From: Halogeometricum borinquense DSM 11551
GTDB lineage: Archaea > Halobacteriota > Halobacteria > Halobacteriales > Haloferacaceae
DNA: 32,000 bases
NCBI RefSeq assembly: GCF_000172995.2
Contig: NC_014735.1
Location: 180,001-212,000 of the forward strand
Direction of reading: 5' to 3'
The number at the start of each line of letters is the position of its first letter. Positions within the stretch are counted from its first letter, which is position 1. Below are positions 1 through 26,434 of this stretch, one piece after another. The notes under the pieces were generated by a model. It did not search any database. It was given only the letters and a program-made list of their open reading frames with translations, and had not been told where the DNA came from. Both the position numbers and the translations under genes were made by a program.

Positions 1-1
1 C

Positions 2-2056
2 AACAACATCGCAGTCAACTCGACGCTCGTCCGGTACGCTGACGCCGACGTTCGGGTCTTCGTCCCGAAAAACACGCTGGCCAGTACGCCCACCAACACG
101 GTCGTATTCGTGAAGAACAACGGTACGGCACCGATTCTGAACGCGACGGCCGCGGTTGACTACGGTGATGGCAGTAACACGACGGTCGATCTGGGTCGTA
201 TCAACGCCTCGCAGACCAACACCACGCGAGCGCCTCACACCTACAACAGTGGTGGCGATTACACGGTGACTGCGACGGTTGACGACGCAGTACCGTTCGA
301 CAACAACGAGGCAGCGAAGACGATTGAGGTCAAAGCGTTCGATCTGAACCTCGACGCGGAGGACATCTCGGTCCCGACTGACGCGACGAACGGGACGACG
401 TTCACCGCGACGGCACGGTTCCAGACGAACTACCCGACGACGGTGAATGCGACGCTCGAACTCCCGGACGGCCTCGAACTGGTCGCTTCGGAGAACGCGA
501 GCAAAGATGTCCCAGCATCCGCTACCGGTGGGACCGCTGCGTGGAAGGTCCGAGTCAACACGACTGAGGATGTCTCCGACGCGCAGGTGAACGTCACGAC
601 GAAGGCACACGGCCAAACGTCGTCGGCGAGCACCACTCTGAACCTCTCGGTGCCGAAGATCCGCCTCACGGACACCAACGCGACGACGCTTTCGTCGGGT
701 TCGGACAACGTGACGGTTGATCTGTCCAGTGCGACGACCTACGACCACACGGTGAACGTCACCGTGCAGGCTGGTTCACAGGGACGGACCCTCGCAGGCC
801 TCGAATATCTGTTCACCTACCCGTACGGGTGCGTCGAGCAGACGACGAGCCAGATGATGGGTGCGCTTCGGACGGACCAGTACTACCGCAGTGGCGACAT
901 CCCGAACAACTACAACCGGCAACGGGCGAACGACACTATCGAAATCGGTGTCGAAAAGCTCGGCACGAACCAAGCGTCCTCGCTCATCTGGCCTGATCTC
1001 GCACAGAACGAGGACGGCTCTTGGAGCATGTACGGCGGCGCCTTCTACGACGAGGGCGACCTCTACTACACGACCGCCGCGCTGCAGGGCGTGACGTCGG
1101 TTGCAAACGACGAAGTGCAAGGGACCCGCGCTGAGGTCTCAGACGATATCCAGACGGTCAACGCAAGTCGTTCGATCGAGTGGCTCTCCGACCACCAGCG
1201 CGCTGATGGCTCCGTCCCCGCGACGGATTACTTCCTCCGCGACCAGTTCTCCTCGACGGGGTACACGATGGTCGCGTTCGACCGCGCAGAGCCACACCTC
1301 AACTCGAGTGCTACGCAGACCGCCGAGGACTTCCGCGTCGATGCGGCAGTCTTCCTCATCGAGAACCAGAACAGCGACGGTAGCTGGGCGAGCGACCGAA
1401 GTCAGTCCGACATCAGCCAGAAACCGCAGGCGACTGCACTCGCGCTCCGCGGCCTCGCAACGGTCAACGAGAGCGCTGCACTCCGTCAGCGTGTGAATCA
1501 ACAAACCGATACCGACCTGTCCACTGCCATCGATAACGGTTCGCAGTGGCTGATCGACAACCAGAACGCCGATGGCTCGTGGGACGCCTATCGGAACTCC
1601 TTCTTCTGGAGTTCTAACGGCGAAGTCACGCGGGCGACGGGTCACTCGATCCTTGCACTGAACGAGACGCAGGGCGTGACGACCCAAGGAACCTCGGACG
1701 CAGCCGACTCTGTCGAGGATGCCACCGACTACCTCGTTGGCGTCTACGACAGTGACGGCTCGTTCGGTAACACCCGTGCGACGGGTGTGGCAATCAACGC
1801 GCTGACCACCGCGGACCAGCGCGGTGTCACTCCGCAGACCGTCGATGTGACGGTTGGCGGCGTGACGAAGACCGCATCGGTCGATAGTTCGACGACGACC
1901 GATACGGTCACCTTCTCGACCAGTGAACTTCAGCAGTTCCGCGACGAGGGAACTGGTAAAATCGAGTTAGAGGCACAGAACTCCGACAGCCTCGTCGTCA
2001 TCGGCGTCGAGTCGGTGCAAGTCGTGAACGAAGATGAGCATACGGAGAACAACTGA
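2..2056 (+). CDS. Secreted alpha-2-macroglobulin-type thioester-domain protein, 5' end outside the window (PKD-like, CARDB-like, thioester domain, C-terminal beta-sandwich)
   Basis: The frame of track ORF 110..2056 stays open back to nt 2 (NNIAVNSTLVRYADADVRVFVPKNTLASTPTNTVVFV...), so the GTG at 110 is internal. PKD-like motif DYGDGS...HTYNSGGDYTVTATVDD at ~150-300. Thioester signature LFTYPYGCVEQTTSQMMG resembles the bacterial A2M YPYGC[LG]EQT pattern as I recall it. Alpha/alpha-toroid-type repeats follow: QNEDGSW, NQNSDGSW, NQNADGSW, DSDGSFG. Many N-x-S/T sequons. No C-terminal anchor. Confidence 0.8.
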   Translation, partial: NNIAVNSTLVRYADADVRVFVPKNTLASTPTNTVVFVKNNGTAPILNATAAVDYGDGSNTTVDLGRINASQTNTTRAPHTYNSGGDYTVTATVDDAVPFDNNEAAKTIEVKAFDLNLDAEDISVPTDATNGTTFTATARFQTNYPTTVNATLELPDGLELVASENASKDVPASATGGTAAWKVRVNTTEDVSDAQVNVTTKAHGQTSSASTTLNLSVPKIRLTDTNATTLSSGSDNVTVDLSSATTYDHTVNVTVQAGSQGRTLAGLEYLFTYPYGCVEQTTSQMMGALRTDQYYRSGDIPNNYNRQRANDTIEIGVEKLGTNQASSLIWPDLAQNEDGSWSMYGGAFYDEGDLYYTTAALQGVTSVANDEVQGTRAEVSDDIQTVNASRSIEWLSDHQRADGSVPATDYFLRDQFSSTGYTMVAFDRAEPHLNSSATQTAEDFRVDAAVFLIENQNSDGSWASDRSQSDISQKPQATALALRGLATVNESAALRQRVNQQTDTDLSTAIDNGSQWLIDNQNADGSWDAYRNSFFWSSNGEVTRATGHSILALNETQGVTTQGTSDAADSVEDATDYLVGVYDSDGSFGNTRATGVAINALTTADQRGVTPQTVDVTVGGVTKTASVDSSTTTDTVTFSTSELQQFRDEGTGKIELEAQNSDSLVVIGVESVQVVNEDEHTENN
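830..841 (+). other. Predicted thioester-forming C-V-E-Q codons (Cys 830-832, Gln 839-841)
   Basis: tgc gtc gag cag is in frame with the 110..2056 ORF (residue 241 of the track ORF), inside GLEYLFTYPYGCVEQTTSQMMG. Confidence 0.7.
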
Positions 2057-2066
2057 GGTGATTCAG

Positions 2067-3275
2067 ATGAAGCAGACATTTACCGCAGTGACGGCCGCAC
2101 TCCTCGTGTTGGCACCGATTGCGCTCGCAATCGGTCCCGGAGCCGTAGCTGCGCAGCAAGACCCATATACGGTCGAGGTGGTAGCACCGGACGACTTCAG
2201 CACAAACGGGAATCAGACGCTCACCGTCCGTGTGACGAACAACGCGGACGACGCGTTCCTGAACCCCGTAGTCGAAGTACCGATTAGCAGTCCGCTGTCG
2301 CTTCCCGCGGGCGCGACGGACACCGTCTACGCCGATGGTGACCCGAGCAACACGCGTGAAGCAGCGGTTCAGGACAGTACGTTCCAGACCGGTGACGCAC
2401 TCGTTATCAGTGGTGCCAACATCGACGCTGGCGAGACGCGCACGTATCACTTCAACGTGACCGTCGATACGCCCGGTTCGACGACTGTCTCCGCAGACGT
2501 CCGACCGCTGTACAACACGGACCAGAACGTCCGAGCTAGTACGTCCATGACGGCACTCGGAACGGGTACCGTTTCGGCGAACGTTGTCGATACGGACGGG
2601 AACGCTGTCAGCAACGCCGACGTGTCTATCGACGGCAACGCCGTGGGTAGTAGCGTCTCCGAGACCGTCCTCGAAGGCGAACACACTGTCTCCGTGTCCG
2701 GTCTCGACGGCGATTACCCGTCGTTCACGTTCGACACGGCCGTTGGTGGTGACAACTCCGTGACGTTCGTGAAGCAGGATGAGAAGACGATTCAGCCCAT
2801 CGCTTACACCAGCGACGAGACGAACATCGTCGTCAGCAGTACCTCTCGGACCGAAGGATCGGCTGTCTCACCCGTAAATACGACCGTTTCGTTCACCTTC
2901 TCGAAGGACTCCGGAACGGCCGTCTACGAAGTCCAAGAGCCGTCCGTCGCCACCAAAGGTGACGGGACTGTCAGCACCGACGGTAATCTCGTGTCCGAAT
3001 CGATGGTTGACGGCGACAAACGACTGGAAATCAAGCCGACAGGAGCGACGACGCAAGTGGATCTCGAATACGAAGGATACGAACTCGGAAACGTGAACCG
3101 TGACGACACTGTGGACGCAACGGATGCTTCCGCGGTCTCAGCGGACGTCGCTAAGGGGCAGTCCCCTGAGTACGCCGACGTGAACGACGACGGTCGCGTG
3201 TCCGCAATCGACGCGATGTTCATCGCACAGTACGCCGCCGACAACCGAACGCCGGACTACTCGGGGGTGCAATAA
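2067..3275 (+). CDS. Secreted dockerin-bearing surface protein (Ig/CARDB-like and carboxypeptidase-regulatory-like beta-sandwich domains, C-terminal dockerin)
   Basis: ATG 2067 is preferred over the track start 2034. GAGGTGAT (2055-2062) lies 4-5 nt upstream, and the start is 10 nt after the upstream stop. Sec-type signal MKQTFTAVTAALLVLAPIALAIGPGAVAAQ. Acidic, sequon-rich body. Dockerin repeats at the C-terminus. Confidence 0.8.
   Translation: MKQTFTAVTAALLVLAPIALAIGPGAVAAQQDPYTVEVVAPDDFSTNGNQTLTVRVTNNADDAFLNPVVEVPISSPLSLPAGATDTVYADGDPSNTREAAVQDSTFQTGDALVISGANIDAGETRTYHFNVTVDTPGSTTVSADVRPLYNTDQNVRASTSMTALGTGTVSANVVDTDGNAVSNADVSIDGNAVGSSVSETVLEGEHTVSVSGLDGDYPSFTFDTAVGGDNSVTFVKQDEKTIQPIAYTSDETNIVVSSTSRTEGSAVSPVNTTVSFTFSKDSGTAVYEVQEPSVATKGDGTVSTDGNLVSESMVDGDKRLEIKPTGATTQVDLEYEGYELGNVNRDDTVDATDASAVSADVAKGQSPEYADVNDDGRVSAIDAMFIAQYAADNRTPDYSGVQ
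3087..3245 (+). other. Dockerin module (two EF-hand-like Ca-binding repeats)
   Basis: GNVNRDDTVDATDASAVSADVAKG and ADVNDDGRVSAIDAMFIAQYAADN. The second repeat fits the D-x-N-x-D-G-x-(I/V)-x-x-x-D-x-x-x-(I/L) pattern of type I dockerins. The first has N/N/D/D/D at positions 1, 3, 5, 9 and 12. Confidence 0.7.
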
Positions 3276-3276
3276 G

Positions 3277-4149
3277 ATGCGAACAAGTATGCAAGTACTC
3301 GTCACCGCGATGTGTGCCGTCATGCTCGTCAGTGCTGGGCTGACGGGATTCGCCGGTGCGCAGTCGAGCAAAACCATCTCGGTGAATGCGCAGGACACAA
3401 TCACCGAAGGGAACGCAGACGATAGTGCGACACTGGTCGCACAGAACGTTGAGGACGCCGATGGCGTCGGCGCGTACAAGGTGCACATCACCTACAACGA
3501 CAGCGCCGTCAGTCTCGATGTTTCGGGAACCTCGACGTTCGACGTGAGTACCGACCAGAGCAAGAGCGGAAACACGGTCACCCTGACTGTCGTCGGTTAC
3601 ACCGACAAAACGCAGGGACCGACCGGTCAGGTCACACTCGCAAACGTTGATGTGACCGCTAACAGCCCGAATGACGGAACTGACGTCGATGTGACGGTTG
3701 AGGAATTCTCCGATACGAAGGGTAACCTCCTTCCCCACTCCGGTGGGACAGAAAGCATCGTCATCAGCCGATCTGATGATGATGGCGGAGATGACGGTGA
3801 CGACGGTGACGACGGTGACGACGGTGACGACGGTGACGACGGTGACGACGGTGATGATGGAGATGACGGTGACGACGGTGGCGGTGGCGGCGGTGGCGGC
3901 GGTGGCGGCGGTGACGTGACCCCGACGCCGACGACCTCGACGCCCACGACTTCGACACCGACGACCTCGACACCGACGACTTCGACGCCGACGACGGACA
4001 CGCCGACGACGGATACGCCGACGACCTCGACGCCGCCGACGGACACACCAACCGATACGCCGACGGAAAGTCTGACGCCCGGATTCGGTGTCGTTGCTGC
4101 TATCACGGCGCTTCTCGCCGCGGCGCTCCTCGCGGTTCGCCGCGACTGA
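3277..4149 (+). CDS. Cohesin-domain cell-surface anchor protein with (GDD)9-G12-(TPTTS)n linker and PGF-CTERM sorting signal
   Basis: The ATG is 1 nt after the upstream TAA. Signal peptide MRTSMQVLVTAMCAVMLVSAGLTGFAGAQS. Cohesin-like body. C-terminal PGFGVVAAITALLAAALLAVRRD (nt 4078-4146) is a canonical archaeosortase-A PGF-CTERM tripartite signal. Confidence 0.85.
   Translation: MRTSMQVLVTAMCAVMLVSAGLTGFAGAQSSKTISVNAQDTITEGNADDSATLVAQNVEDADGVGAYKVHITYNDSAVSLDVSGTSTFDVSTDQSKSGNTVTLTVVGYTDKTQGPTGQVTLANVDVTANSPNDGTDVDVTVEEFSDTKGNLLPHSGGTESIVISRSDDDGGDDGDDGDDGDDGDDGDDGDDGDDGDDGDDGGGGGGGGGGGGDVTPTPTTSTPTTSTPTTSTPTTSTPTTDTPTTDTPTTSTPPTDTPTDTPTESLTPGFGVVAAITALLAAALLAVRRD
3367..3768 (+). other. Cohesin-like module
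   Basis: The spacing resembles type I cohesins: ...ATLVAQNVEDADGVGAYKVHITYNDSAVSLDVSG... (compare G(I/V)xxxxFxIxYDxxVL) and ...SGNTVTLTVVGYTDKTQGPTGQVTLANVDVTANSPNDGTDVDVTVEEFSDTKGNLL.... By-eye match only. Confidence 0.6.
3775..3912 (+). repeat. Coding tandem repeats: 9-bp ggtgacgac units (GDD x9), then 12 consecutive Gly codons (3877-3912)
   Basis: Direct reading gives ...gacggtgacgacggtgacgacggtgac... followed by ggt ggc ggt ggc ggc ggt ggc ggc ggt ggc ggc ggt. Confidence 0.95.
3919..4062 (+). repeat. Coding 15-bp tandem repeats encoding (TPTTS/TPTTD)n, a Thr/Pro-rich putative O-glycosylated stalk
   Basis: acgcccacgacttcg / acaccgacgacctcg units. Protein TPTPTTSTPTTSTPTTSTPTTSTPTTDTPTTDTPTTSTPPTDTPTDTPTE. 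Confidence 0.9.
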
Positions 4150-4164
4150 GCAACGCGACCATTC

Positions 4165-4181
4165 GGTTTTCCCACTTTTTC
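4165..4181 (+). terminator. Oligo-T tracts downstream of the cohesin gene (archaeal-type terminator candidate)
   Basis: ggttttcccacttttt begins 16 nt after the TGA at 4147-4149. Confidence 0.4.
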
Positions 4182-4428
4182 GAGTAGCCGATTGCCGTTA
4201 TCCGACCCTCAGTCGAGGGCGGGTCGTTTCCGCGACCGAGTTGCTATCATCTTTGTTACTGTCCCCATATGAGATCACGTACCAATACTCACAGGTACAA
4301 TCTTCAAATGGGTACCCGACGTGTACTTAGTGCGGCTAGGATGTGAGGTACTGTCATGGTCTGATCGCCTACCCAGGCCGTCAACCAGTACCTACACCGT
4401 CCGAAACAGTAGCTCCCTCAATCTGAAT

Positions 4429-4815: not shown

Positions 4816-5925
4816 TCAGTTCGTGGCACGACGCGCCAGGAGCGTCAGCGAAACGAACAGGATGAGGAGGCTGATGTCCGGGAGGACCGGTGTCTCCGTG
4901 GTTGTCGTCTGTACAGCCGTAGACGGTGCTGTTGACGATGCCGTTTGGGTCGGCATCGTCGTCGCCGTCGTGTTTTGAGGTGGTTCGGTGGAAGTGGTGT
5001 CCGTCACCTGTTCGGTCGTCGAATCAGCAGGCGACGAAGTGGTGGCGTCTGTATCTTCGTCCGCAGAGTCTCCACCTGCGGGCTGTTGTCCGTTCGGAGC
5101 CGACTCACTCGTTGTCGGTGTCGTCGTTGGTGTCGTCGTCGGTGTTGCCGTCGGAGATTCCGTCTCAGTTGGTGATTGCGGTTCCGTCGTACTCGGTGTC
5201 GACGGCTGTTCGGCCACGACGGAGAGCTGCTGTGAATCGCTCAGACCGATGAGTTCCTTCTCTCCGAATACTTCGTTGTCGCGCCGAACCGTGCTGTAGA
5301 CTCGATAGTCCCCGGTCGAGAGCGAACTGAGGTCAACAGTGGCAGTGTAAGTTAGGTCGGACTGTTTCGTCGCAGTCGTACGAACTGAGTCCGTATCGTC
5401 TCCGACGACAACTTCGACAGTTGCCGGCGGTGGCGATACGTCGTTGCTCACCTTCGTCAACTCGACGCTTACCTCCATCTGGCCGTCGCTCTCAGCACTC
5501 TCTGGCGCATGCTGGTCAACCGTGTATCCGGCAACCACGAGCGGTTGGACGGCGTATACCTCCTCGCTTCCATTCATTATTGCGACTGCGTACGTCCCCG
5601 GGTCGTATCGGTCGAGTTCGAACCTCGACTCGTCGTCGCCCACCCCGGGATTGCTGTGCATGAGTTCCTGTTCGCTGTTTATTATCCGAACTGTGTACTC
5701 CTTGTCTGACGGAGCGTTGGTCGTAACCGAGACGTAGTCACCAGTTTGGTATTTTCCGATGTCTGTGACTGTCTGTTCGCCCCACTTTGTTTCGATTGTT
5801 CGGTCGGGAATATCGACAGATTCCTCGGTACTGATACGATAATCCGCCGTTTGCCCGATTGAGACGGGAACCGTCAACAGGCAAACTGCGAGGAAAACGC
5901 CTAGACAGACTCGAGTCGAGGCCAT
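4816..5925 (-). CDS. Secreted surface protein with beta-sandwich body, Thr/Pro-rich stalk and a non-PGF C-terminal TM anchor
   Basis: Signal peptide MASTRVCLGVFLAVCLLTVPVSIGQ. Stalk ...PSTPSTTEPQSPTETESPTATPTTTPTTTPTTS.... C-terminus TETPVLPDISLLILFVSLTLLARRATN (hydrophobic helix plus basic tail). Oligo-T on the coding strand at ~4771-4777. Confidence 0.75.
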   Translation of the reverse strand: MASTRVCLGVFLAVCLLTVPVSIGQTADYRISTEESVDIPDRTIETKWGEQTVTDIGKYQTGDYVSVTTNAPSDKEYTVRIINSEQELMHSNPGVGDDESRFELDRYDPGTYAVAIMNGSEEVYAVQPLVVAGYTVDQHAPESAESDGQMEVSVELTKVSNDVSPPPATVEVVVGDDTDSVRTTATKQSDLTYTATVDLSSLSTGDYRVYSTVRRDNEVFGEKELIGLSDSQQLSVVAEQPSTPSTTEPQSPTETESPTATPTTTPTTTPTTSESAPNGQQPAGGDSADEDTDATTSSPADSTTEQVTDTTSTEPPQNTTATTMPTQTASSTAPSTAVQTTTTETPVLPDISLLILFVSLTLLARRATN

Positions 5926-6029: not shown

Positions 6030-6233
6030 TGAAAACTAACCGGTAATTACAACTAGTTAATCAGTACCATCCACTGACATCTTCACAAAGTACTTAACTG
6101 ATCCGTCATTTGTCTCATCTACCCCTACCCGAGACGACACGCTGGCGAGTAAGCTGTGTCCCCAGCCCTTCAGGATATTGGGACGTCAACAAACGGCCAA
6201 AGCCTGTGTCGTCGTACCAACGATAGACAAACC
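6030..6233 (+). promoter_or_regulatory. AT-richer upstream region of the S-layer gene (promoter and probable long 5' leader)
   Basis: The locally AT-rich stretch aaaactaaccggtaattacaactagttaatcag contains the perfect palindrome AACTAGTT (6051-6058). No TATA box could be pinned down. The 308-nt divergent intergenic region is shared with the 4816..5925 gene. Confidence 0.3.
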
Positions 6234-9053
6234 ATGACAAGTAATACGAAGCAGTTCCGCGCAGTATTCCTCGCGGCGCTGATGGTTATGTCGGTCTTCG
6301 CCGGCACCATCGCGTTCGCTGGAAGTGCTGCTGCGGTCTCTGGTGCGTCCAAAGTAACCTTCAGTCCGACAGATGTCGATGAGGGTGAAACGGGCAGCCA
6401 GCACAACGTGAACGTATCGATTTCTGGATATACTAACGCTGATGGCGCTGCGGATACCATCAACGTCACGCTCCCCGCGGGCGTGACGTTCGCCAACTCC
6501 AATCTGGTCATCGAGAACGCCTCGGGCACCCAGATCGGCACTGGCTCCGTCACCTTGACGAACAACGACGCTAGCGCAGAGATCAGCATCAACCCTGCCT
6601 CTGGCGACGTTACGGACCCGATCTACCTGAGCGGTACCGTGACGGTTGACGCGCCGAGCAACATCGGATCCGACCAGCAAGGTCAGGTCACGCTCTCGAT
6701 GACGCAGTCTGACGGATCTGACCTCGCTGCGACTGACATCCAGCAGCTCACCGTCAACAACCTTGAGGAGGACAACACTGCTCCGAGCTTCGAGGACGCA
6801 GACCTCTACGACAACGACACGTCCGCGAGCGAGGATGCTGAACTCGAACTGGCCTTCAACGAGCCTATCAAGGACATCGAGAAGAGCGACTTCAACCTCT
6901 ACGTCGACGAGGAGCCGATTGCAGACAGCAAGATCTCGCTCGATCAAAAGGGAAGCTCCGGTCGCGTCGTGCTCGGTCTCGACGACGTCTACACGGGCGA
7001 CGTGGAGATCAAGCTCTTCGATAGCATCGAGGACACCTCGGGTAACGCACTCGACGACACGGGTAACAAGACGGTAACCGTCGCTCCCGTGCCGGTGAAG
7101 GATGGCAGCGACATCAACGCCTACCAGGGCTCCAACATCGCTGTTATCACCGATAAGACGCAAACCGAGATTACTGTTGAGGCCTCTGACGACGAGGACT
7201 TCGACTCCTTCCAGGAAGGTAACACTGGCACGAACAGTCAGGTCTACGTCTTCAGCACGACCGACGACACTGAAACCGGTCAGTACAACATCACTCTCAA
7301 GGGCGAGGGCAGCGCGCAGGTCAACGTCCGTAACCTCGGCCTCGAAGTGAACATCGACGACCTCAACGTCACGACTGAAGACGAGATTGAGGGAGTAGTC
7401 GAGGCGAAGGCAGGCAACCGTCCGGTCCGACTCGAACTGCTCGACTCCGACGGTGACACCGTCGAACAACGTGACGTCGAACTCTCGGGTCAGCGCAAGT
7501 ACGAGTTCTCGTTCAACGCATCGGAACTCGACCTCGACGCAGACAACTACACGGTCCTGGCGACGGACAAGCAGTCCGGCGTCGAATCCGAATCCTCCTC
7601 GATCGTTGTTAAGAAGGCCGGTGAGGGCCGCACATCGTTCCCCGGAGACCGTCTCTTCGTGGACCAGCGCGGTGACGTTGCGAACATCACGATCAACGTC
7701 GAAAACTCCGACTTCGCAACTCTGTCGCTCGGGTCGGACGATCTCGCCTTCGAGAGCAACGTGACGATCGAAGACGTCAACGGTGACGGACAGGTCAGCC
7801 TCCTGTTCAACACCTACGCCGCAACCGGAATGTCCGGTGACCTCGGCGATGGCGGTAACGTCTACAGTACCCCGTCGCTCGAAGATCAGGACGACGACGA
7901 GATCACCTCTGCAACTATCGAGCAGAGTGTCAAGTCGCTCCTCGAGCCGGGCCGGTACCCGCTCGAAGTCCGCGCGGGTCAGGATGAGACTGTCGACTCC
8001 GAAGACGCTGGTACGCTCGAGCTCGAAGAGCGTAACACGACGAACATCCAGAGCTGGGTCGCCCCGACTGGTACGAACTTCGAAGATATCGACGAACTCT
8101 ACGACGCAGTAGAGAACAACAACCTCACGCAGGCGAACAAGATTGCCAAAGGCGACATAGCGGTCCACAAGCTCGAGGCCTCCGGTCTTGAAGGGCTCCT
8201 TGGTGCACAGTCGGACGACGACGTGTCCAGCGAGTTCTTCTCCGAAGTCAATAGTGACGGCGCCTTCGAGCTCACCGTTGAGCAAGCGAACCCCGGTGCG
8301 AACCGCGACCCGTACGAACTCGAACTCGGTACGGACAACACGACTGTCTGGGCCGACTCCGACAACAACACGTACTTCATCAAGTACGATACGGACCAGG
8401 TCACGACGACCGAGCGTTCGATTGACAAGGATCACGTGCTCGAAGCGAACTTCACGGTCTACGAGGACGAAGGTAACCTCACCGACGTAGACGACGGTGA
8501 GACGGTCAAAGACGAGTACGAAGTTGTCGAGGCCGACTACATGATCGACGACCCGTACAACGTGACGAATGCTGCTGGTCAGACGATCATGGCCGAGACG
8601 ACTGTCGCGCCTGGTACGGAAGTCAGCGTACGAGCCCGCTCGACGGGTGACACGCAGCCGAGCTTCCTGAAGCCCGCGACCGTCTACGTCACCGAGAACC
8701 AGACGTTCTCGGCTACGCTCGACTTCAGCGAACAGGCAGTTGGCGACACCTACGAAATCACGATCGACGGCGGCGCAGCTGACTCTGTAACGGTTGATGG
8801 TAACGTCGTCGAGAGTCCCGAGACGCCGACGCCGACGGACACGCCGGACAACGAGACGGACACGGCGACTGACGGCGAAGATACGCCGACGGACACGCCG
8901 ACGCCGACGGCCACGCCGACTGACGGCGGAGACACGCCGACTGACGGCGGAGACACTGAAACTGAAACCGGCACGGGTACGCCCGGCTTCGGTGTCGTCG
9001 TTGCTGTCACGGCACTCCTCGCCGCGGCGCTCCTCGCAGTCCGCCGCGACTAA
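6234..9053 (+). CDS. csg: S-layer (cell surface) glycoprotein, PGF-CTERM anchored
   Basis: ATG 6234 is preferred over track start 6156. The signal peptide MTSNTKQFRAVFLAALMVMSVFAGTIAFAGSAAA closely resembles the haloarchaeal Csg signal peptide as I recall it from Haloferax (…LMVTSVFAGAIAFTGSAAA). 939 aa and very acidic. About 20 N-x-S/T sequons by hand count. Thr/Pro/Asp-rich C-terminal stalk and PGFGVVVAVTALLAAALLAVRRD (8982-9050). Confidence 0.85.
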   Translation: MTSNTKQFRAVFLAALMVMSVFAGTIAFAGSAAAVSGASKVTFSPTDVDEGETGSQHNVNVSISGYTNADGAADTINVTLPAGVTFANSNLVIENASGTQIGTGSVTLTNNDASAEISINPASGDVTDPIYLSGTVTVDAPSNIGSDQQGQVTLSMTQSDGSDLAATDIQQLTVNNLEEDNTAPSFEDADLYDNDTSASEDAELELAFNEPIKDIEKSDFNLYVDEEPIADSKISLDQKGSSGRVVLGLDDVYTGDVEIKLFDSIEDTSGNALDDTGNKTVTVAPVPVKDGSDINAYQGSNIAVITDKTQTEITVEASDDEDFDSFQEGNTGTNSQVYVFSTTDDTETGQYNITLKGEGSAQVNVRNLGLEVNIDDLNVTTEDEIEGVVEAKAGNRPVRLELLDSDGDTVEQRDVELSGQRKYEFSFNASELDLDADNYTVLATDKQSGVESESSSIVVKKAGEGRTSFPGDRLFVDQRGDVANITINVENSDFATLSLGSDDLAFESNVTIEDVNGDGQVSLLFNTYAATGMSGDLGDGGNVYSTPSLEDQDDDEITSATIEQSVKSLLEPGRYPLEVRAGQDETVDSEDAGTLELEERNTTNIQSWVAPTGTNFEDIDELYDAVENNNLTQANKIAKGDIAVHKLEASGLEGLLGAQSDDDVSSEFFSEVNSDGAFELTVEQANPGANRDPYELELGTDNTTVWADSDNNTYFIKYDTDQVTTTERSIDKDHVLEANFTVYEDEGNLTDVDDGETVKDEYEVVEADYMIDDPYNVTNAAGQTIMAETTVAPGTEVSVRARSTGDTQPSFLKPATVYVTENQTFSATLDFSEQAVGDTYEITIDGGAADSVTVDGNVVESPETPTPTDTPDNETDTATDGEDTPTDTPTPTATPTDGGDTPTDGGDTETETGTGTPGFGVVVAVTALLAAALLAVRRD
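8915..8956 (+). repeat. Perfect 21-bp tandem duplication (gccgactgacggcggagacac x2) encoding PTDGGDT PTDGGDT in the Csg stalk
   Basis: Direct reading: 8915-8935 is identical to 8936-8956. Confidence 0.95.
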
Positions 9054-9070
9054 CGTCGCTGGCTGAACCA

Positions 9071-9105
9071 CCGGCTCACGCCGGCCTCTTACTTTCCTTT
9101 CTTTC
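9071..9105 (+). terminator. Stem-loop (CCGGC tcac GCCGG) followed by a T-rich tract downstream of csg
   Basis: ccggctcacgccgg at 9071-9084, then ctcttactttcctttctttc, starting 18 nt after the TAA. Confidence 0.45.
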
Positions 9106-10053: not shown

Positions 10054-13050
10054 CTATCGTTCGGTCCGAAGCAGGCGTTCGGGGTCGTGACTGAGGAAGG
10101 CGTATCCGACGCCGAGTGCACTGCCAATCGCAAGTGCAAGCGCGCCGAGTCCAGTCCCGAGGAGGAGTTCTACGGACTGGGGCGCGTGCAGTTTAATGCC
10201 GAAGATGACGAGTACGTCGCTTCGAGCGAGAACGTAAATGACGGTGAACGCCGTCCCGAATGCGATAGCTATCGCCGGAAGTGACAGTTTGACTGCATCC
10301 ACGGCGAGTACTCCGAGTAGTTGCCGGCGACTCGCACCCGTCGCACGGAAGATACCGATTCGGCGTCGGTTTGCGTGGACGGCATGAGCGAACGTTGCCG
10401 CTGTCCCACCGACCGTACTGACGCCAGCGAGAGCGATCATAACGAGGAACAGTACTCGAACGTTCCCGAAGACGCTCTCGATGGCGTGGTTGATGGCCGT
10501 CCCTTGTGAGTACTCGCCTTGGGACGCGAGCGTAGCGGTGACCCGTTCGTCACCGGTGACGCGGTACGTCGTCGTTGCGAGGACAATCTCATCCGAGACT
10601 AATCGGAGGTCGTACGTTCCGGGGGTGAGCGAGTCATCAAGTCCCGCGTCCGAGGCCGGAATACGAATTTGCGTGATATTGCCGCCGGTCATTTCCACGG
10701 TTCGGTGTTCCGTCTCCGCGGGGGTAACGAGCGAAACGTTTCGCACGAAAAACTGCCCCCATGGGTTCGCCAACTGTACCGTTACCTCCGGCTTGGTCAA
10801 TCGTGTTCCGCGTTGTGGTGATACCTGTAGTCGTCCGATGAGGCGCTGCGGTGCATCCTCTTCGACGACGAGCGTGCGCCGCTCGCTCGTGTAGTTCTGT
10901 TTCTCGATAGTGAGCGTGTACTCACCCGGTTCCGTGGGTACGCGCATGAGGACAGTGCCCTGCTCGTTCGTCGTACCCTGCCGATCTCCGAGCGTTACTG
11001 TCGCCCCCGTAACGGGCGTCTCGTTCCGCGTCGTCGCGGGGACGATGAGTGTCGAACCCGGTGGTGCCCGTCTGGGGAACTTCGCGGGGAGTCGGAGCGT
11101 TCGCGGACTGAACACTTCGACTGACTTGGTCATTTCTGCCGCTGTTATCGTGTGCGTTCCCGGCTCTGCGAAGGTGAACCCGACATCGGCCGCGCCGCTT
11201 TCTCCCGGCCCGACAGAGAGCGTTCGACTGCGCGTCCTGTTATCAGCGCGAACCGTTACGTTCCGCGTCGCGGCTTTCTTCCCAAGGTTCTCTCCTCGAA
11301 CCGTCAGCGTGTACGTGTGGTTAACTTCTACCGATGACGAACCTGATAGCTCGGTCACGACGATACCGCTTGATTGCCCCGCAAATCGCTCGAAGTCGAG
11401 CGTATCACCGTTCGTCCGGATGAGGTGAACGGTTTTACTGTCGGTGGCTAACTGCTGTCCCGTCTGTAGCGGAATGAGTAGTTGGTCGTCGGTGATACCG
11501 TCGCCCGAGAATCGCCCGACAATTGTGAGTCGCCGAACGCCGGGCGTGACACTTCCACCGACCATTATCGTCTCACCCACGCTGACATCGAGCGTGTCCG
11601 CGAGACTTGTCCCGATAACGGCCTCGTCGTAGGCCGCTGGGGTCCGCCCTTCGACTACTGTCGTATTCGAAACCGCGCTGAACGCCGTGTAGTTCGCTCC
11701 GCGAGCGAGATACGGTTCGCCGTTTCGTGTCTGCGCGTACAGTACCTCTGGACTCGCCGTGATGTTCTGCGAGCGCAGGACCGACGCGTACTCCTCGCTG
11801 ATTCGGCTATTCAGCGGGTGCGTGATACCGGCCTCGGTGACAGTGCCGCTCGACGTCGTTGCCAGTGGTGCGAGTGCGCCGCCGATTGCAGTCGTGAGGA
11901 GGATAACCAGCACGAAGACGGCAACTGTCGTCGTCGTCGGAACGACCGCCCGCCAATCGACGAACGTGGGCTGGACGAGCGAGAGCCGTTCTCGAACCCG
12001 TGTCGCAATCGACTGTGTCGTGTTCGTGGAGCGGCCGATTGTCGCAGGACTCCCTCGAACGACGGGAACTGATGCGAGAACGCCGGCGAGCACGCCCATC
12101 CCGAGGAGGAAGCCACCGATCTGTAGCACTGCCCACAGAATATCCGACGTGACGACGGCCCGTATCGTGACCGGCAATCCGGCGTACGTCGCCGCGTTGA
12201 TGACGGCTTTTGTCGTGATGAGACCGATTGCAAAGCCCAATATCACCCCTGTCCCGACGAGTCCGAGAACCCGCCCTTGCAGCACAGCGAAGAGACGGAT
12301 CGGTGAGATACCGGTCGCCCGCGCCACCCGTATCTCCGGATGGCGGTCGCGTATCGACATTCGCGTCACGTTGTAGACGACGACAAGGATGAGTAATCCG
12401 CCGCCGACGGCGGCGATGGTGAGCGTTCGTATCACCTGCCCGAGACCGCTGACTAAGAACGGTAACGCGCCGATCAGTGGTGCTCCCTGTTCTTGCCACT
12501 GTGCGATACCTGCCGGTTCTCCTCCGGCCTCGATGACGAGTGCGCCTGATGCTCCGAGTGATGTAACCGTATCAGCCGATCCGACGTACCACTCCGCCGG
12601 GAATATCGACTGTTCGGGCGGGTGTGGTGACACCGTCGTGTCGGTCGTTCCGACGGGGAGTTGTGTCGTTCGGGGGACTGGACCGTATAGCCCCTCGTCC
12701 GGAGCGCTGGGGACGGTCGCTGGTTGCCATGCGACCGACGCCTCCTCGATTCTCGGTGGGGCGTCCGGCGGAATCCCGACGACCGTTCGGGTGTGACCGT
12801 CGATATCGACACGTATGAGCGGAAATACGAGGTCTCCCGTATCCGTGGCGGCGACGGCAGCGTCGTGTGACTCGTAATACGTCGCCGTCGAAGCGCTTTC
12901 GAGGTCGCCTTCGAGCGTCGATGTGTAGGAGCCGACAGTCAGCAAGAGGACGGCGGAGCCGATGAGAAACGCCGTGGTGACGGCGATGACAGCGACACTC
13001 AGCCACTCCCGGCGAGACCACGACGAAAGCAGCGTCGATTCGAATCGCAT
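10054..13050 (-). CDS. Giant double-FtsX (MacB-like, type VII ABC) permease with large extracytoplasmic beta-sandwich-rich domains, paralogue 1
   Basis: Two FtsX-module signatures: MSIRDRHPEIRVARATGISPIRLF and ANRRRIGIFRATGASRRQLL. MacB-periplasmic-core-like YDEAVIGTSLADTLDVSVGETIMVGGS. A carboxypeptidase-regulatory-like repeat ATVTLGDRQGTTNEQGTVLMRVPTEPGEYTLTIEKQNY. Starts 18 nt downstream of the ATPase gene. Confidence 0.9.
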   Translation of the reverse strand: MRFESTLLSSWSRREWLSVAVIAVTTAFLIGSAVLLLTVGSYTSTLEGDLESASTATYYESHDAAVAATDTGDLVFPLIRVDIDGHTRTVVGIPPDAPPRIEEASVAWQPATVPSAPDEGLYGPVPRTTQLPVGTTDTTVSPHPPEQSIFPAEWYVGSADTVTSLGASGALVIEAGGEPAGIAQWQEQGAPLIGALPFLVSGLGQVIRTLTIAAVGGGLLILVVVYNVTRMSIRDRHPEIRVARATGISPIRLFAVLQGRVLGLVGTGVILGFAIGLITTKAVINAATYAGLPVTIRAVVTSDILWAVLQIGGFLLGMGVLAGVLASVPVVRGSPATIGRSTNTTQSIATRVRERLSLVQPTFVDWRAVVPTTTTVAVFVLVILLTTAIGGALAPLATTSSGTVTEAGITHPLNSRISEEYASVLRSQNITASPEVLYAQTRNGEPYLARGANYTAFSAVSNTTVVEGRTPAAYDEAVIGTSLADTLDVSVGETIMVGGSVTPGVRRLTIVGRFSGDGITDDQLLIPLQTGQQLATDSKTVHLIRTNGDTLDFERFAGQSSGIVVTELSGSSSVEVNHTYTLTVRGENLGKKAATRNVTVRADNRTRSRTLSVGPGESGAADVGFTFAEPGTHTITAAEMTKSVEVFSPRTLRLPAKFPRRAPPGSTLIVPATTRNETPVTGATVTLGDRQGTTNEQGTVLMRVPTEPGEYTLTIEKQNYTSERRTLVVEEDAPQRLIGRLQVSPQRGTRLTKPEVTVQLANPWGQFFVRNVSLVTPAETEHRTVEMTGGNITQIRIPASDAGLDDSLTPGTYDLRLVSDEIVLATTTYRVTGDERVTATLASQGEYSQGTAINHAIESVFGNVRVLFLVMIALAGVSTVGGTAATFAHAVHANRRRIGIFRATGASRRQLLGVLAVDAVKLSLPAIAIAFGTAFTVIYVLARSDVLVIFGIKLHAPQSVELLLGTGLGALALAIGSALGVGYAFLSHDPERLLRTER

Positions 13051-13068
13051 CTCAGCCCCCGAGCGCGG

Positions 13069-13767
13069 TCATTGCCGCGGAGAGTAGTCTATCGATTCCA
13101 GCTCGTCGTCGTCCGCATCTGTGATGCGGCCGTCTTGGAGGAGTACTGTCTCCGCGAACCGCGGTGCTAACCCTCGGTCGTGGCTGATGAGTACGAGAGC
13201 GGTATCCGTCTGCGCTTTGACTCTGAAGAGGAGATCAAGCACGCGCTCGGCCGTGTTCGGGTCGAGTTGTCCTGTCGGTTCGTCCGCCAGCACAACGTCG
13301 GGTTTGTTCGCCAGCGCGCGGGCGATGGCGACGCGTTGTTTCTCCCCGCCGCTCAGCGTAGTTGGGTACTGCTCTCTGAGGTCTGTGATGTCGAGCGCGT
13401 CGAATAGCGTTTCGAGCCACGATTCGTCGCGGCTCCCGGTGTGGTCCTGCGGGAGCGCGGCGTTGTCCCACGCGGAGAGGTCCGGAATCAGCTGAAAATC
13501 CTGAAACACGAACCCAATCGTATCGCGCCGAATCGCGGCGCGCTTTCGCTCCGGTAGCGAACTGGCGTCCTCGCCGTTGACGAAGAGTGACCCGCTGGTC
13601 GGTGTACTCAGTAGTCCGAGAACGTTGAAGAGAGTCGTTTTGCCAGCGCCGCTCGGGCCTCTGACAAGGAGCGACGTGTCGTCGGCGACATCGAGCGAGA
13701 TGCCGTCGAGAATGACGCTCCCTCCCCGTTCGACAGTGACGTTTTCGCCGCGGAGCACGGGTGCCAT
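13069..13767 (-). CDS. ABC transporter ATP-binding protein (MacB/LolD-type)
   Basis: Walker A GPSGAGKTT, Q-loop FVFQDFQLIPDLSAWDN, signature LSGGEKQRVAIARAL, Walker B VVLADEPTGQLD, H-loop ISHD. Confidence 0.95.
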   Translation of the reverse strand: MAPVLRGENVTVERGGSVILDGISLDVADDTSLLVRGPSGAGKTTLFNVLGLLSTPTSGSLFVNGEDASSLPERKRAAIRRDTIGFVFQDFQLIPDLSAWDNAALPQDHTGSRDESWLETLFDALDITDLREQYPTTLSGGEKQRVAIARALANKPDVVLADEPTGQLDPNTAERVLDLLFRVKAQTDTALVLISHDRGLAPRFAETVLLQDGRITDADDDELESIDYSPRQ

Positions 13768-14416: not shown

Positions 14417-16075
14417 CTAACAACCCGAGTACTGACCGCTCGGCATCGAGATGACGAGTGGGTCGCGTCCGTTTGAGGCGTAGACCACGTTTCGAGACGA
14501 GAGCCACCGGTCGTACGCTTCCGGTGAGACCGTTTTCGGGGCTGTCGGGAACAGGTGTGCCCCGGTCGTCGTCCACGACCGCTGTGAGAGGACCGGACAG
14601 GATGGACTCGAACCTCCGGTCAACCAGTTTGCAACGGGGTCGAACGTTGCGTTTTCGTCGAATACGTACACTCCGATTCGCGTAACTGGATGGTCGCTTA
14701 CCCAGTCCGACTCGCTTTGGGTGCTGACGAACTCGATGCCCTGATACTCGGACGGCATGGTCGTTGTGAGGGCTGACCCGGAGTCTAAGTTGATGAACGC
14801 AAGCGGTGCCGAGGCGGTCACGGTCGCAACGACGAGTAAGACGAGCAGTATGCGGAGTGCTCGCCGTGGGCTACTGTCACCCCGCCGTTCGAGCAATCGC
14901 GCAACGGTGATCGCACTGATGATCAAGATCGGGAGGTGAAGGAACGTCTGTGCGCGCATTGCAGTGGCGAAGTACTCGGGTGTGAGCGACGCCGTGAGGC
15001 TAAAACCGATGATGACGGCCGGCGCGGAAAACAGTGCCACGAGGAGGAAAGCACCGCGATATTCATCGAGAACATCCAGCGAGGCGACCGCTGCGAGTGC
15101 AACGACGACGAGCAGACTCACCAATCCGAGTACGGTTCGTGGCGTGGTCACCGTGCCCGGGAAGATGGGCGTGAACGCGTTCAGGATCACAACGGCGAAG
15201 AACGAGCCGATGACCGCGAGATACGTTCCCTGCCTGATGCGGAGGCTGGTGTGTTGGATCCACACCACGCCGATAACGAGGACGATACCCCACGCGACGA
15301 ACAGTCCCGGATAGGCCGTGATGCGATCCACGTACGGAACGGTGAGCGAAAGGCTCGTTGCCGCAGTCCGGTAGTAGACGGCGATGTACGCCCAAAACCC
15401 ACCTGCAAGCCCGACACCACAGAGCAGCGAGCGGCGTGTCAACGTCCGCGAGACGTGCAGTGCAGTCAGCGCAGTGACGATCAATCCGACGACGAGCGAC
15501 GTGAACGTGTGTAATATCGGGAAGATACCGAGAAGCAGTCCGACGATACCGTACCATCGTCGCTGGCCCGTCCGGAAGGCGTAATGAAGCGAGACCGCAA
15601 CGATCAAAGAGAGGAGGATTGCGACGATTTCTTCGTCCGGGACGGCCGTTCGTCGCAGGAATAATCCTTGGACCGCGAGGAGACCGGCCGTGACTGTGGC
15701 GACAGTAGACGGTCGGACCGAGAGGTGCGGAGTATCGCGGACGATGCGGCGTGCGACGACGGCACCGACGAAACAGATGATCGCACCGATTGTCGTCGCT
15801 AGCGGTTGGGCCACGTATAGCGGATCAGCATCGAATACGGTGCCGGTGACAGCGAACAGCGACGTGAACAGCAGGCTATCCGCCCGTCCGGTGAGCGGCA
15901 CCGACCCGGTTTCGGTCGCCGTCCGCGCCATCGCGGCGTAGTTGAAGCCGTCCAACGTCGAGGGATACGGACTCAGGTGGAGTGGAAACGACCGGATCGC
16001 AAGCGCTAGCAGTACTAGAGCGGTGAGGGCGAGTCCGAACCGTCGTCGTCGTTTACGCATCGCGTCGTTCCCCAC
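14417..16075 (-). CDS. GT-C-fold-like polytopic membrane glycosyltransferase candidate (ArnT/PMT/AglS-like) with a C-terminal extracytoplasmic domain
   Basis: More than 10 predicted TM helices. The first loop LDGFNYAAMARTATETGSV aligns with the ArnT-type DETRYAEISREMLASGDW motif (D..YA...R.....G). ~130-aa soluble C-terminal domain. Overlaps the upstream permease stop by 23 nt, or by 8 nt if the alternative ATG 16060 is used. Confidence 0.75.
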   Translation of the reverse strand: MGNDAMRKRRRRFGLALTALVLLALAIRSFPLHLSPYPSTLDGFNYAAMARTATETGSVPLTGRADSLLFTSLFAVTGTVFDADPLYVAQPLATTIGAIICFVGAVVARRIVRDTPHLSVRPSTVATVTAGLLAVQGLFLRRTAVPDEEIVAILLSLIVAVSLHYAFRTGQRRWYGIVGLLLGIFPILHTFTSLVVGLIVTALTALHVSRTLTRRSLLCGVGLAGGFWAYIAVYYRTAATSLSLTVPYVDRITAYPGLFVAWGIVLVIGVVWIQHTSLRIRQGTYLAVIGSFFAVVILNAFTPIFPGTVTTPRTVLGLVSLLVVVALAAVASLDVLDEYRGAFLLVALFSAPAVIIGFSLTASLTPEYFATAMRAQTFLHLPILIISAITVARLLERRGDSSPRRALRILLVLLVVATVTASAPLAFINLDSGSALTTTMPSEYQGIEFVSTQSESDWVSDHPVTRIGVYVFDENATFDPVANWLTGGSSPSCPVLSQRSWTTTGAHLFPTAPKTVSPEAYDRWLSSRNVVYASNGRDPLVISMPSGQYSGC

Positions 16076-23221: not shown

Positions 23222-24145
23222 TTATTCGAGATAGTACTCGACGGTTTCTTCGAGTCCTTCTTCGAAGGTGTACGCCGGTTCCCAGCCCAACGATTCTATT
23301 TTCTCGGTTTCGAGGGCGTACCGCTGGTCGTGACCCGCCCGATCCTCGACGAATTCGATGAGGGCTTTGTCTGCTCCAACAGCATCGAGAATCGCTTCGG
23401 TGACCTCTAAGTTCGTTTTCTCCGCGTGACTGCCGATGTTGTATATCTCACCAATCTCTCCCTCGCGGAGGACGGTATCGAGTGCTCGACAGTTGTCTTC
23501 GGCGTAGATCCACTCTCTGACGTTCGATCCGTCACCGTAGACGGGGAGTGATTTGCCCTCGCTGGCGTTCTTGATAAACTTCGGGATGAGTTTCTCTGGA
23601 TGTTGTCGCGGGCCGAAGTTGTTGCACGTCCGCGTAATGAGCACCGGAAGGTCGTGTGTCGTCTCGAAACTCTTTGCGAGATGGTCGGCACTCGCCTTCG
23701 TCGCGGAATAGGGGTTTCGAGGATTGAGTGGGTCATCTTCGGAGAACTTCCCGTCTAGAATCTGTCCGTAGACTTCGTCGGTCGAAATCTGGAGGAACCG
23801 TTCGATTCCCGAATCCTTGGCTGCATCGAGGAGCGTCTGCGTCCCCTGTACGTTTGTTTCGACAAACGGCTTTGCACCCTCGATCGACCGGTCCACATGT
23901 GATTCTGCGGCGAAGTTGACGACTGTATCCACGTCAGCGACGAGGTCGCGGACGAGTTCTTCGTCTCGAATGTCACCTTCGATGAATTCGTGGCGTGGAT
24001 TGTCGAGGACGCCTTCTAAGTTCTCCTTCGAACCAGCGTACGTGAGCGCGTCGAGTGTAACGACTTCGTCATCGTACTGTTCGATCACGTAGTGGACGAA
24101 GTTTGAGCCGATGAATCCAGCGCCTCCAGTGACGAGTATTCGCAT
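23222..24145 (-). CDS. rmlB: dTDP-glucose 4,6-dehydratase
   Basis: MRILVTGGAGFIGSNFVHYV Rossmann motif, catalytic YSATKASADHL (YxxxK), conserved TRTCNNFGPRQHPEKLIP. Confidence 0.95.
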   Translation of the reverse strand: MRILVTGGAGFIGSNFVHYVIEQYDDEVVTLDALTYAGSKENLEGVLDNPRHEFIEGDIRDEELVRDLVADVDTVVNFAAESHVDRSIEGAKPFVETNVQGTQTLLDAAKDSGIERFLQISTDEVYGQILDGKFSEDDPLNPRNPYSATKASADHLAKSFETTHDLPVLITRTCNNFGPRQHPEKLIPKFIKNASEGKSLPVYGDGSNVREWIYAEDNCRALDTVLREGEIGEIYNIGSHAEKTNLEVTEAILDAVGADKALIEFVEDRAGHDQRYALETEKIESLGWEPAYTFEEGLEETVEYYLE

Positions 24146-24199
24146 GATCGGGTAATCGTCAGTAGCACCTATTTACGTTTTCATTGAGACAGGGGGCAT

Positions 24200-25105: not shown

Positions 25106-25112
25106 CGCCTCG

Positions 25113-25292
25113 TCAGATCTCGTAGCGGTCCTTGTTTTCGAGGAAGTGCTCTTGTGCTTCGACTGGGAGTTCGCTGAATCGGTGGACGTGTTCGCACCCG
25201 AAGCCCGGGCACTTCATCACGCGGTTCGATTCGAGTTCGTTCGCCGCGACGACGGTGCCGCACTCAGGACATGTTGTAGTGATGATGCGCAT
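25113..25292 (-). CDS. Small zinc-ribbon protein (59 aa, CPxCG...CPGFGC), not in the ORF track, translationally coupled to rmlA
   Basis: Base-by-base reverse-complement translation: MRIITTTCPECGTVVAANELESNRVMKCPGFGCEHVHRFSELPVEAQEHFLENKDRYEI*. The ATG (25290-25292) is 2 nt downstream of the rmlA TAA (25295-25297). Just below the 60-aa track cutoff. Confidence 0.6.
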   Translation of the reverse strand: MRIITTTCPECGTVVAANELESNRVMKCPGFGCEHVHRFSELPVEAQEHFLENKDRYEI

Positions 25293-25294
25293 TG

Positions 25295-26368: not shown

Positions 26369-26395
26369 CGACGTGCGTTGGTACCTTACAAGACG

Positions 26396-26403
26396 TTAAA
26401 TAA
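26396..26403 (-). promoter_or_regulatory. TATA box (TTATTTAA on the minus strand) for rmlA
   Basis: Centred ~32 nt upstream of the rmlA ATG (26366-26368), which suggests a leaderless or very short-leader transcript. Confidence 0.5.
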
Positions 26404-26434
26404 GTTCGTGCCTCACTGACAGACGCCTGTTTGC

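Follow-up and report, generated by a model that had tools for sequence, protein, structure and literature searches.

A putative dockerin–cohesin tether linked to a complement-like thioester protein gene in Halogeometricum borinquense

Archaea commonly encode cohesin and dockerin modules, and two adjacent genes of Halogeometricum borinquense DSM 11551 raise the question of what such a pair would do at the surface of a haloarchaeon. Both genes lie within the 32,000-nucleotide (nt) stretch analyzed here (NC_014735.1, positions 180,001 to 212,000; hereinafter, the window). Gene A encodes a secreted protein that ends in a dockerin, and gene B, directly downstream, encodes a protein with a cohesin-like module. 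An earlier note on this DNA considered the two to be a dedicated pair; it missed the PGF-CTERM anchor of gene B and the thioester protein gene upstream of gene A, and these supply the likely purpose of the pair. In the relevant passages of two reviews, the function of cohesins and dockerins outside cellulosomes is given as not known (PMC5244752, PMC9012536). With moderate confidence, we propose that genes A and B form a dedicated, non-cellulosomal cohesin–dockerin tether that holds a thioester-protein complex at the cell surface; it is most likely a large complement-like thioester protein module that the pair pins there.

The product of gene A is named "dockerin type I domain-containing protein" by NCBI (WP_006055910.1 / ADQ68668.1). 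Its start at position 2067 is NCBI's choice as well as the point where the N-termini of the orthologues align, and is better supported than the alternative ATG at 2034, which yields 413 amino acids (aa). The last 60 residues comprise two repeats, each a calcium loop followed by a helix (NVNRDDTVDATD at 3090; DVNDDGRVSAID at 3177), and Pfam Dockerin_1 (PF00404) is matched at E = 1.7e-9 (38.1 bits against a cut-off of 22.9; aa 353–400 of the 413-aa reading). The same family is matched by all 13 orthologues, the best at E = 2.1e-13. The best sequence matches in the PDB are the dockerin of C. thermocellum CelS and other dockerins, and the profile of the orthologues matches solved dockerins at E = 1e-5. 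In a six-frame scan of the whole 32 kb, the dockerin loop motif was found at just these two sites of gene A. The last base of the module is 3245, which leaves 30 nt to the end of gene A (TAA, 3273–3275), as the earlier note had stated. Upstream of the dockerin, weak matches to a carboxypeptidase-regulatory-like sandwich were obtained near aa 170–250; no catalytic domain was detected in gene A by Pfam, NCBIfam or PDB profile. Full-length relatives of the protein are 33–61% identical to it.

The two repeats of this dockerin are clearly distinct. Repeat 1 reads N-V-N-R-D-D-T-V-D-A-T-D and repeat 2 reads D-V-N-D-D-G-R-V-S-A-I-D, both with ligand-type residues at all five calcium-ligand positions. 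Repeat 1 had been described as divergent, which holds for position 6 (D for G) and for the helix but not for the ligand positions 1, 3, 5, 9 and 12, which are intact (N, N, D, D, D); because the first loop retains all of them, this repeat is probably functional despite its divergence. The asymmetry is present in 13 of 13 orthologues, with only 5–11 of 23 positions shared between the repeats. Repeat 2 is invariant at D-V-x-x-D-G ... D-A-M-x-x-x-Q-Y, whereas the helix of repeat 1 is variable; accordingly, the mean column entropy is 0.92 bits for the second-repeat helix vs 1.49 bits for the first. Internal symmetry of dockerins is linked to dual binding, so that the asymmetry seen here can be read as fitting one preferred binding face.

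The cohesin identity of gene B residues 30–163 is far less apparent from the single sequence. At E ≤ 10, the region alone matched no Pfam family of any kind; a phmmer search of the PDB returned no cohesin among its sequence matches; a word-index search for homologues found none; and AlphaFold run on the sequence with no alignment produced a failed model, with a predicted local distance difference test score (pLDDT) of 41. Where these single-sequence approaches had failed, the family was exposed when 1.84 billion representatives were searched exhaustively with HMMER, which returned 53 relatives (25 at E ≤ 1e-10). Most of these are acidic proteins with a terminal PGF-type motif or transmembrane helix, as in gene B. 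The haloarchaeal relatives have one cohesin domain each, and the distant relatives are multi-cohesin or cohesin-plus-dockerin proteins, the two modules being joined on one chain as in typical cohesin–dockerin proteins. In an alignment of 39 cohesin domains of the family (A1), PF00963 is detected at E ≤ 0.01 in 27 (best E = 7.7e-12). The family profile matches the solved cohesins 1g1k (from C. cellulolyticum; E = 7.7e-5) and 2vn5 (E = 8.5e-5), followed by further cohesins; in the word-index search, it retrieved only four proteins, and the matches carry precomputed PF00963 annotations. With the 39-sequence alignment, AlphaFold2 gave a predicted structure of nine strands with a pLDDT of 96.0 and a predicted TM-score (pTM) of 0.88. 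A Foldseek search of the PDB with this model placed cohesins at all of ranks 1–24, with E down to 2e-7 and TM up to 0.84. The earlier note had assigned a cohesin-like module to 3367–3768 (aa 31–164) and had tied this assignment to a nine-stranded jelly roll; because the predicted fold did come out in this form, the observation is confirmed, together with the evidence from the family profile, PF00963 and Foldseek.

The rest of gene B has the layout of a surface stalk. The N-terminus appears to be a Sec-type signal peptide, judging from its hydrophobic core and AGA-Q site. There is exactly one cohesin in the protein, the remainder being low-complexity linker and anchor, so the view that gene B is not a multi-cohesin scaffoldin stands. 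At the C-terminus, gene B matches the PGF-CTERM families PF18204 (E = 1.2e-7, 31.9 bits vs a cut-off of 18.8) and TIGR04126 (E = 6e-11, 41.7 bits vs a cut-off of 24.5), and the C-terminal 79 aa align to the end of the model of the ArtA-dependent surface-layer (S-layer) glycoprotein, NF041335 (E = 1.8e-13). PGF-CTERM is the established recognition signal of archaeosortase ArtA, leading to lipid anchoring. Thus, by its sequence features, gene B would be a single-cohesin stalk protein lipid-anchored via archaeosortase A. Thr/Pro-rich linkers like that of gene B are of the O-glycosylated type found in haloarchaeal S-layer glycoproteins and, by analogy, this linker is probably glycosylated. An identical protein without a recorded Pfam family is encoded on contig AOHT01000044.1 (GCA_000337855.1). 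Both the acidic and the Thr/Pro spacers are encoded by tandem arrays with periods of 9, 15 and 45 nt (window 3793–4065); Tandem Repeats Finder reports 14.1 copies of the 9-nt period at 3793–3916. Strain-to-strain variation in the length of these arrays is likely, and the orthologues have folded domains in their place.

The adjacency of the two genes is conserved far beyond this genome. Loci were gathered by look-ups of the encoding contigs, a genome scan, a metagenome scan and local profile scans; the scan of the genome collection, made with a narrower alignment (A2), yielded seven loci. By profile scan, 19 of the 20 loci that carry either family show a dockerin match followed 80–165 nt later on the same strand by a cohesin match, and in the twentieth (L017) the contig begins within the dockerin helix. 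In H. borinquense, a single spacer base separates the TAA of gene A from the ATG of gene B at 3277, as had been noted from the sequence. In each of the 15 loci with both ends readable, the stop of the dockerin gene and the ATG of the cohesin gene are separated by –4 to +3 nt, which argues that the adjacency is no coincidence of one genome; comparative genomics thus lends good support to the claim of a dedicated pair. Four unrelated dockerin-only metagenome loci from the same scan have no cohesin of the gene B family nearby, suggesting that the adjacency is specific to this cassette rather than general to dockerins. The observation of a coupled dockerin and cohesin is real and well above chance.

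The cassette consists of three genes in a constant order: a giant thioester protein, the dockerin protein and the cohesin protein. Of the 18 loci long enough to include the region about 2.2 kb upstream of the dockerin, 16 have a CxEQ motif there, and a looser scan recovered a CxEQ motif in one of the remaining two (L011). The hosts belong to at least six genera and include Halogeometricum, Haloferax (gibbonsii, marisrubri, prahovense and sp. Q22), Halobellus, Halobacterium and Halorarius (two species); further sources are one more isolate genome assembly and saltern or brine metagenomes. All complete cohesin proteins end either in PGF-CTERM or in a transmembrane helix with a basic tail. Between the two ends, the Haloferax and Halobellus versions have an inserted PGF-pre-PGF domain and others have added PKD or CARDB domains, so that the N-terminal cohesin, the C-terminal anchor and the dockerin gene immediately 5' are constant and all else varies.

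The first gene of the cassette, which is only partly included in the window, encodes a secreted alpha-2-macroglobulin/TEP-like protein of about 1,900 aa with CARDB repeats, a PKD-like domain and a thioester domain (TED). The match to TED_complement (PF07678) is at E = 2.2e-11 (43.9 bits vs a cut-off of 22), and the thioester motif is present. As called in the locus record L001 (where window position 3277 is position 10001), the protein is 1,792 aa long and contains five stretches of CARDB besides the TED. An in-frame ATG 88 codons upstream of the called start (L001:3138–3401) adds a Sec signal peptide, MRLGNSNRTKLISLVLVGVVVFSTVVGPVSAASA; the Haloferax orthologue begins in the same way, so the start in the public gene model has probably been set too far downstream. 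In the 1,792-aa reading, which also contains PKD-like domains, no MG domain reaches the Pfam threshold, the orthologue in locus L014 has a faint match to MG2, and no PDB sequence match was found for the giant protein at E ≤ 0.01. The giant has no anchor of its own. Different genera have retained its C-terminal motif, VVG.ES.Q.VNE.E..., a hint that a contact there is under constraint. None of the giant protein, gene A, gene B and the neighboring DUF8159 gene matched the PADLOC defence models.

The link between gene A and the giant comes from Halobacterium bonnevillei (NZ_WUUU01000001.1; L010:2–5902), where the giant and the gene A homolog are encoded in one open frame. The order in the fusion is the TED motif, the C-terminal motif of the giant (...EQLVNREEYEDTE), a non-hydrophobic linker of 30 residues in the place of the gene A signal peptide, and the whole of gene A through the dockerin. 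This looks like a real fusion because the gene A part, having no signal peptide, could not be exported alone. Although a single case (1 of 15 loci), it argues that the gene A product and the thioester protein act together; since the two form one polypeptide in this organism, gene A resembles a C-terminal part of the giant that has become detached, and we infer that, where the two are split, their products associate.

Taken together, these data suggest the following scheme. Gene B would be exported, cleaved at PGF-CTERM by archaeosortase A and attached to membrane lipid, and would present one type I-like cohesin on a glycosylated Thr/Pro and acidic spacer. Gene A would be exported separately, and its C-terminal calcium-binding dockerin would plug into the cohesin of gene B, with the conserved second-repeat helix probably making most of the contact. 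The cargo would not be a carbohydrate-active enzyme but the product of a three-gene operon headed by the thioester giant: the TEP-like protein and the gene A protein would be secreted, associated or fused, and then captured by the cohesin of gene B. The net effect would be to retain the thioester-protein complex on the cell surface and prevent its loss to the brine. By analogy with related proteins, the role of the thioester protein may be protease trapping or covalent tagging of foreign molecules. More tentatively, and at less than even odds in our judgment, a complement-like thioester protein could be presented on the surface of haloarchaea in split form, as a complex that assembles itself from a secreted body, the detached, dockerin-bearing gene A product and a dedicated archaeosortase-anchored cohesin.

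Several observations weigh against the proposed tether. PF00963 is not matched by gene B aa 29–165 at E ≤ 10, nor by the whole protein at E ≤ 1, and the cohesin assignment rests on transitive homology and a predicted fold. The outward residues of the 8-3-6-5 sheet, the usual dockerin-contact face of cohesins, are no more conserved than those of the other sheet (Mann–Whitney p = 0.32), in what is a crude test that assigns residues as inward or outward by hydrophobicity only. The association of gene A with the giant rests on one fusion in 15 loci, and the idea that gene A is the missing MG10 domain of a split macroglobulin was rejected (bMG10 match at E = 0.075 in one of 13 orthologues). In addition, other dockerin proteins are present in related genomes. 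Three competing explanations were considered. An unlikely one, if the least unlikely of the three, is that the pair anchors the gene A protein alone, as a beta-sandwich adhesin or S-layer accessory, the thioester protein being an unattached, freely secreted partner in the same pathway. The giant and gene A are indeed separate in 14 of the 15 loci, each with its own signal peptide, and no interaction domain between them has been identified; that the two can work as one chain is nevertheless demonstrated by the H. bonnevillei fusion, and a giant that lacks an anchor and keeps its C-terminal motif across genera fits poorly with free secretion.

Somewhat less probable still is that the pair binds but the cohesin serves as a general docking post for several dockerin-bearing secreted proteins, such as subtilisin-like proteases, gene A being merely a co-transcribed client. 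Haloferax gibbonsii (CP011947.1; L002:1–578) does encode a Peptidase_S8 subtilisin-like protein with a C-terminal dockerin about 6 kb upstream of the cassette, and the profile of gene A orthologues also matches the dockerin repeats of two PDB chains labelled "serine protease" (8x39 and 8x3a). In the H. gibbonsii protease, however, the two dockerin repeats are nearly symmetric (DVNGDGNVTLADVQTLFAH / FSGNGRVNVADVQALFAK), in contrast to the asymmetric repeats of the cassette dockerin, and their helices differ in sequence (LADVQTLFAH / VADVQALFAK vs DAMLVQQY), and among the loci scanned the gene B cohesin family is found directly behind gene A-type dockerins only. The most improbable of the three explanations, in our view, makes the cohesin fold a mere stalk or spacer that binds no dockerin, with the dockerin acting as a calcium-dependent stabilizer or binding, for example, the S-layer. 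A cohesin too divergent for Pfam and the lack of a conserved binding face in the crude test would agree with this, as would the description, in a review passage, of the function of non-cellulosomal archaeal cohesins and dockerins as unknown (PMC5244752). Yet the junction of –4 to +3 nt has been kept through about 65–70% sequence divergence in the most distant orthologues and despite change in every other domain of gene B (PGF-pre-PGF, PKD and CARDB inserts; PGF-CTERM or transmembrane anchor), and cohesin–dockerin pairs of Archaeoglobus have been shown to bind, according to a passage of PMC9012536 citing Haimovitz 2008. The dedicated tether remains the explanation that we favor.

The features of the cassette are collected in Table 1. 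The oligo-T runs that directly follow gene B mark the probable end of the transcription unit.

Table 1. Features of the thioester protein–dockerin–cohesin cassette in window coordinates (aa, amino acids; ORF, open reading frame).
Feature	Position	Strand	Description
First cassette gene, 3' part (last 684 codons)	1..2056	+	TED_complement; runs off the left edge of the window
GCVEQ thioester motif (CxEQ) within YPYGCVEQTTSQ	827..841	+	Read from sequence; context YPYGCVEQ
Gene A	2067..3275	+	ORF; 402-aa secreted protein: signal peptide, several beta-sandwich domains, C-terminal dockerin
Type I-like dockerin	3087..3245	+	Repeat 1 loop 3090–3125; repeat 2 loop 3177–3212; second helix ends at 3245
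Gene B	3277..4149	+	ORF; 290-aa single-cohesin surface anchor protein
Putative Sec-type signal peptide of gene B, MRTSMQVLVTAMCAVMLVSAGLTGFAGAQ	3277..3363	+	Read from sequence
Cohesin module, aa 30–163	3364..3765	+	Predicted nine-stranded beta sandwich, type I-like shape, no inserted helix
Acidic (Asp-Gly)n spacer, then Gly12 run	3766..3916	+	Encoded by GACGGTGAC tandem array
Thr/Pro-rich (TPTTS)n linker	3917..4074	+	15-nt and 45-nt period arrays at 3918–4065
PGF-CTERM sorting signal, PGFGVVAAITALLAAALLAVRRD	4075..4146	+	PF18204, TIGR04126
Oligo-T runs, ...cggttttcccactttttcgag...	4160..4185	+	Directly 3' of the gene B stop

Among the genes around the cassette, other surface proteins are found. 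A 965-aa S-layer-glycoprotein-like gene (6156–9053, plus strand) contains DUF7827 and a BGTF surface domain, scores 576 bits with NF041335, below the cut-off of 1,100, and has a PGF-CTERM tail (PGFGVVVAVTALLAAALLAVRRD) nearly identical to that of gene B. A frame of 961 aa lies exactly antisense to it (6186–9071, minus strand), as do many more long antisense frames elsewhere in the window, which has about 60% G+C over most of its length; such frames commonly arise as an artefact where G+C is high and do not represent genes. Closer to gene B, on the minus strand at 4816–5925, a 369-aa secreted protein is encoded with two beta-sandwich regions (weak match to DUF3244), a long Thr/Pro/Ser-rich linker and a C-terminal hydrophobic helix; in the Haloferax loci, its place is taken by a 379-aa gene with no recorded Pfam family. 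Further downstream, two FtsX-type permeases of about 1,000 aa with large extracytoplasmic regions (10054–13767 and 16053–19031, both on the minus strand) are accompanied by an ATP-binding cassette (ABC) ATPase. Transporters of the FtsX type are likewise found beside the cassette of the Haloferax locus and of one metagenome locus, and the FtsX/ABC type matches the "antimicrobial peptide transporters" near archaeal macroglobulin genes (PMC8416519). A small DUF8159 gene (about 160 aa; L001:2427–2918, minus strand) has equivalents in L002, L004, L005 and L015, located divergently upstream or just downstream of the cassette, and found no match in NCBIfam or PADLOC.

Toward the right end of the window, the stretch 28001–30000 has a G+C content of 0.40 vs about 0.60 elsewhere and lies inside a cluster of sugar-nucleotide/polysaccharide genes that includes dTDP-rhamnose-type genes (23222–26974), a flippase (27088–28512) and a sulfatase fragment (30870–31640). 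The low-GC stretch contains a 619-aa ORF (28862–30721) without a Pfam match, and the cluster looks like a horizontally acquired glycosylation island. A tblastn search with the cohesin and the dockerin against the plasmid collection PLSDB found no match, which is uninformative if PLSDB, as we assume, holds bacterial plasmids only.

Should the split-complex display prove true, it would give non-cellulosomal archaeal cohesin–dockerin pairs a concrete role in surface defence or conflict. The locus is a clean, testable case: it combines a single dockerin and a single cohesin with an anchoring pathway that is already known, and its cargo can be identified as an archaeal relative of complement/alpha-2-macroglobulin proteins; orthologs occur in the genus Haloferax, some species of which are genetically tractable. 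The pair presumably works in multimolar salt and could serve as a tool for protein assembly. Given that haloarchaeal cohesins are invisible to Pfam as single sequences, Pfam-based censuses undercount them.

The system differs from the cellulosome on both sides of the joint: a scaffoldin has multiple cohesins, whereas gene B has one, and cellulosomal dockerins are attached to carbohydrate-active enzymes, whereas gene A has no detectable catalytic domain. The cohesin–dockerin pairs of Clostridium perfringens toxins and glycosidases (PDB 2jh2, 2vo8, 2w1n, 2o4e) likewise join non-cellulosomal secreted proteins in defined pairs, and the C. perfringens cohesins are the best structural matches of the gene B model (2jh2 at E = 2e-7; 2vo8 with TM 0.84). 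Those pairs, however, are bacterial and link enzyme to enzyme, whereas here the cohesin is on a membrane anchor; to our knowledge, they are not encoded by adjacent coupled genes. The Archaeoglobus fulgidus cohesin (PDB 2xdh; Foldseek rank 13) is archaeal and non-cellulolytic, with the same fold as the gene B model, but belongs to a hyperthermophilic system, whereas the H. borinquense pair is halophilic; we know of no PGF-CTERM anchor or thioester protein context described for it. Archaeal cohesin–dockerin pairs are reported to bind specifically in a passage of PMC9012536 that cites Bayer 1999 and Haimovitz 2008.

Secreted archaeal homologs of TEP/alpha-2-macroglobulin with a TED and an intact CxEQ motif have been described in Halobacteria (Makarova et al. 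2021; PMC8416519), with an example from Haloferax gibbonsii ARA6, the genome of locus L002. These TED proteins are located among surface proteins and ABC transporters of the antimicrobial-peptide type, and roles in immunity or inter-microbial conflict were suggested for them; the H. borinquense locus is of the same kind, with FtsX/ABC genes that also flank the cassette. The words cohesin and dockerin are absent from the main text of that paper. In the portions of its supplements that were searched, "dockerin" does not occur and "cohesin" occurs 10 times, with two passages being arCOG labels for a Nitrososphaera protein; an arCOG label in the macroglobulin-neighborhood sheet may cover gene A or B. 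In the literature searched, no description was found of a conserved thioester-protein operon whose last gene encodes a single cohesin with a PGF-CTERM anchor.

Retention of a large secreted thioester protein at the membrane is established for bacterial alpha-2-macroglobulin (the E. coli ECAM/YfhM type). The bacterial protein is itself a lipoprotein, whereas here a separate protein would provide the anchor via the cohesin–dockerin joint, and the domains before the TED also differ, with CARDB and PKD repeats in the haloarchaeal giant and no macroglobulin domain at the Pfam threshold. For the tether, the counterparts are the single-cohesin anchors OlpA and OlpC (PDB 3ul4, 4dh2) and anchoring scaffoldins such as SdbA of C. 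thermocellum, in which, as proposed for gene B, an envelope-anchored cohesin takes a secreted dockerin protein straight to the surface; the cohesins of 3ul4 and 4dh2 are among the Foldseek matches of the gene B model, at ranks 17 and 20. The bacterial proteins are held in the wall by an S-layer-homology module, whereas gene B has the archaeosortase/PGF-CTERM lipid anchor, and their cargo is a cellulosomal enzyme rather than a thioester protein module. Their dockerin clients are many and dispersed in the genome, unlike the client here, which is encoded immediately upstream of the cohesin gene. The closest analogies are thus OlpA and OlpC for the tether and the lipoprotein-anchored bacterial alpha-2-macroglobulin for the logic of membrane retention.

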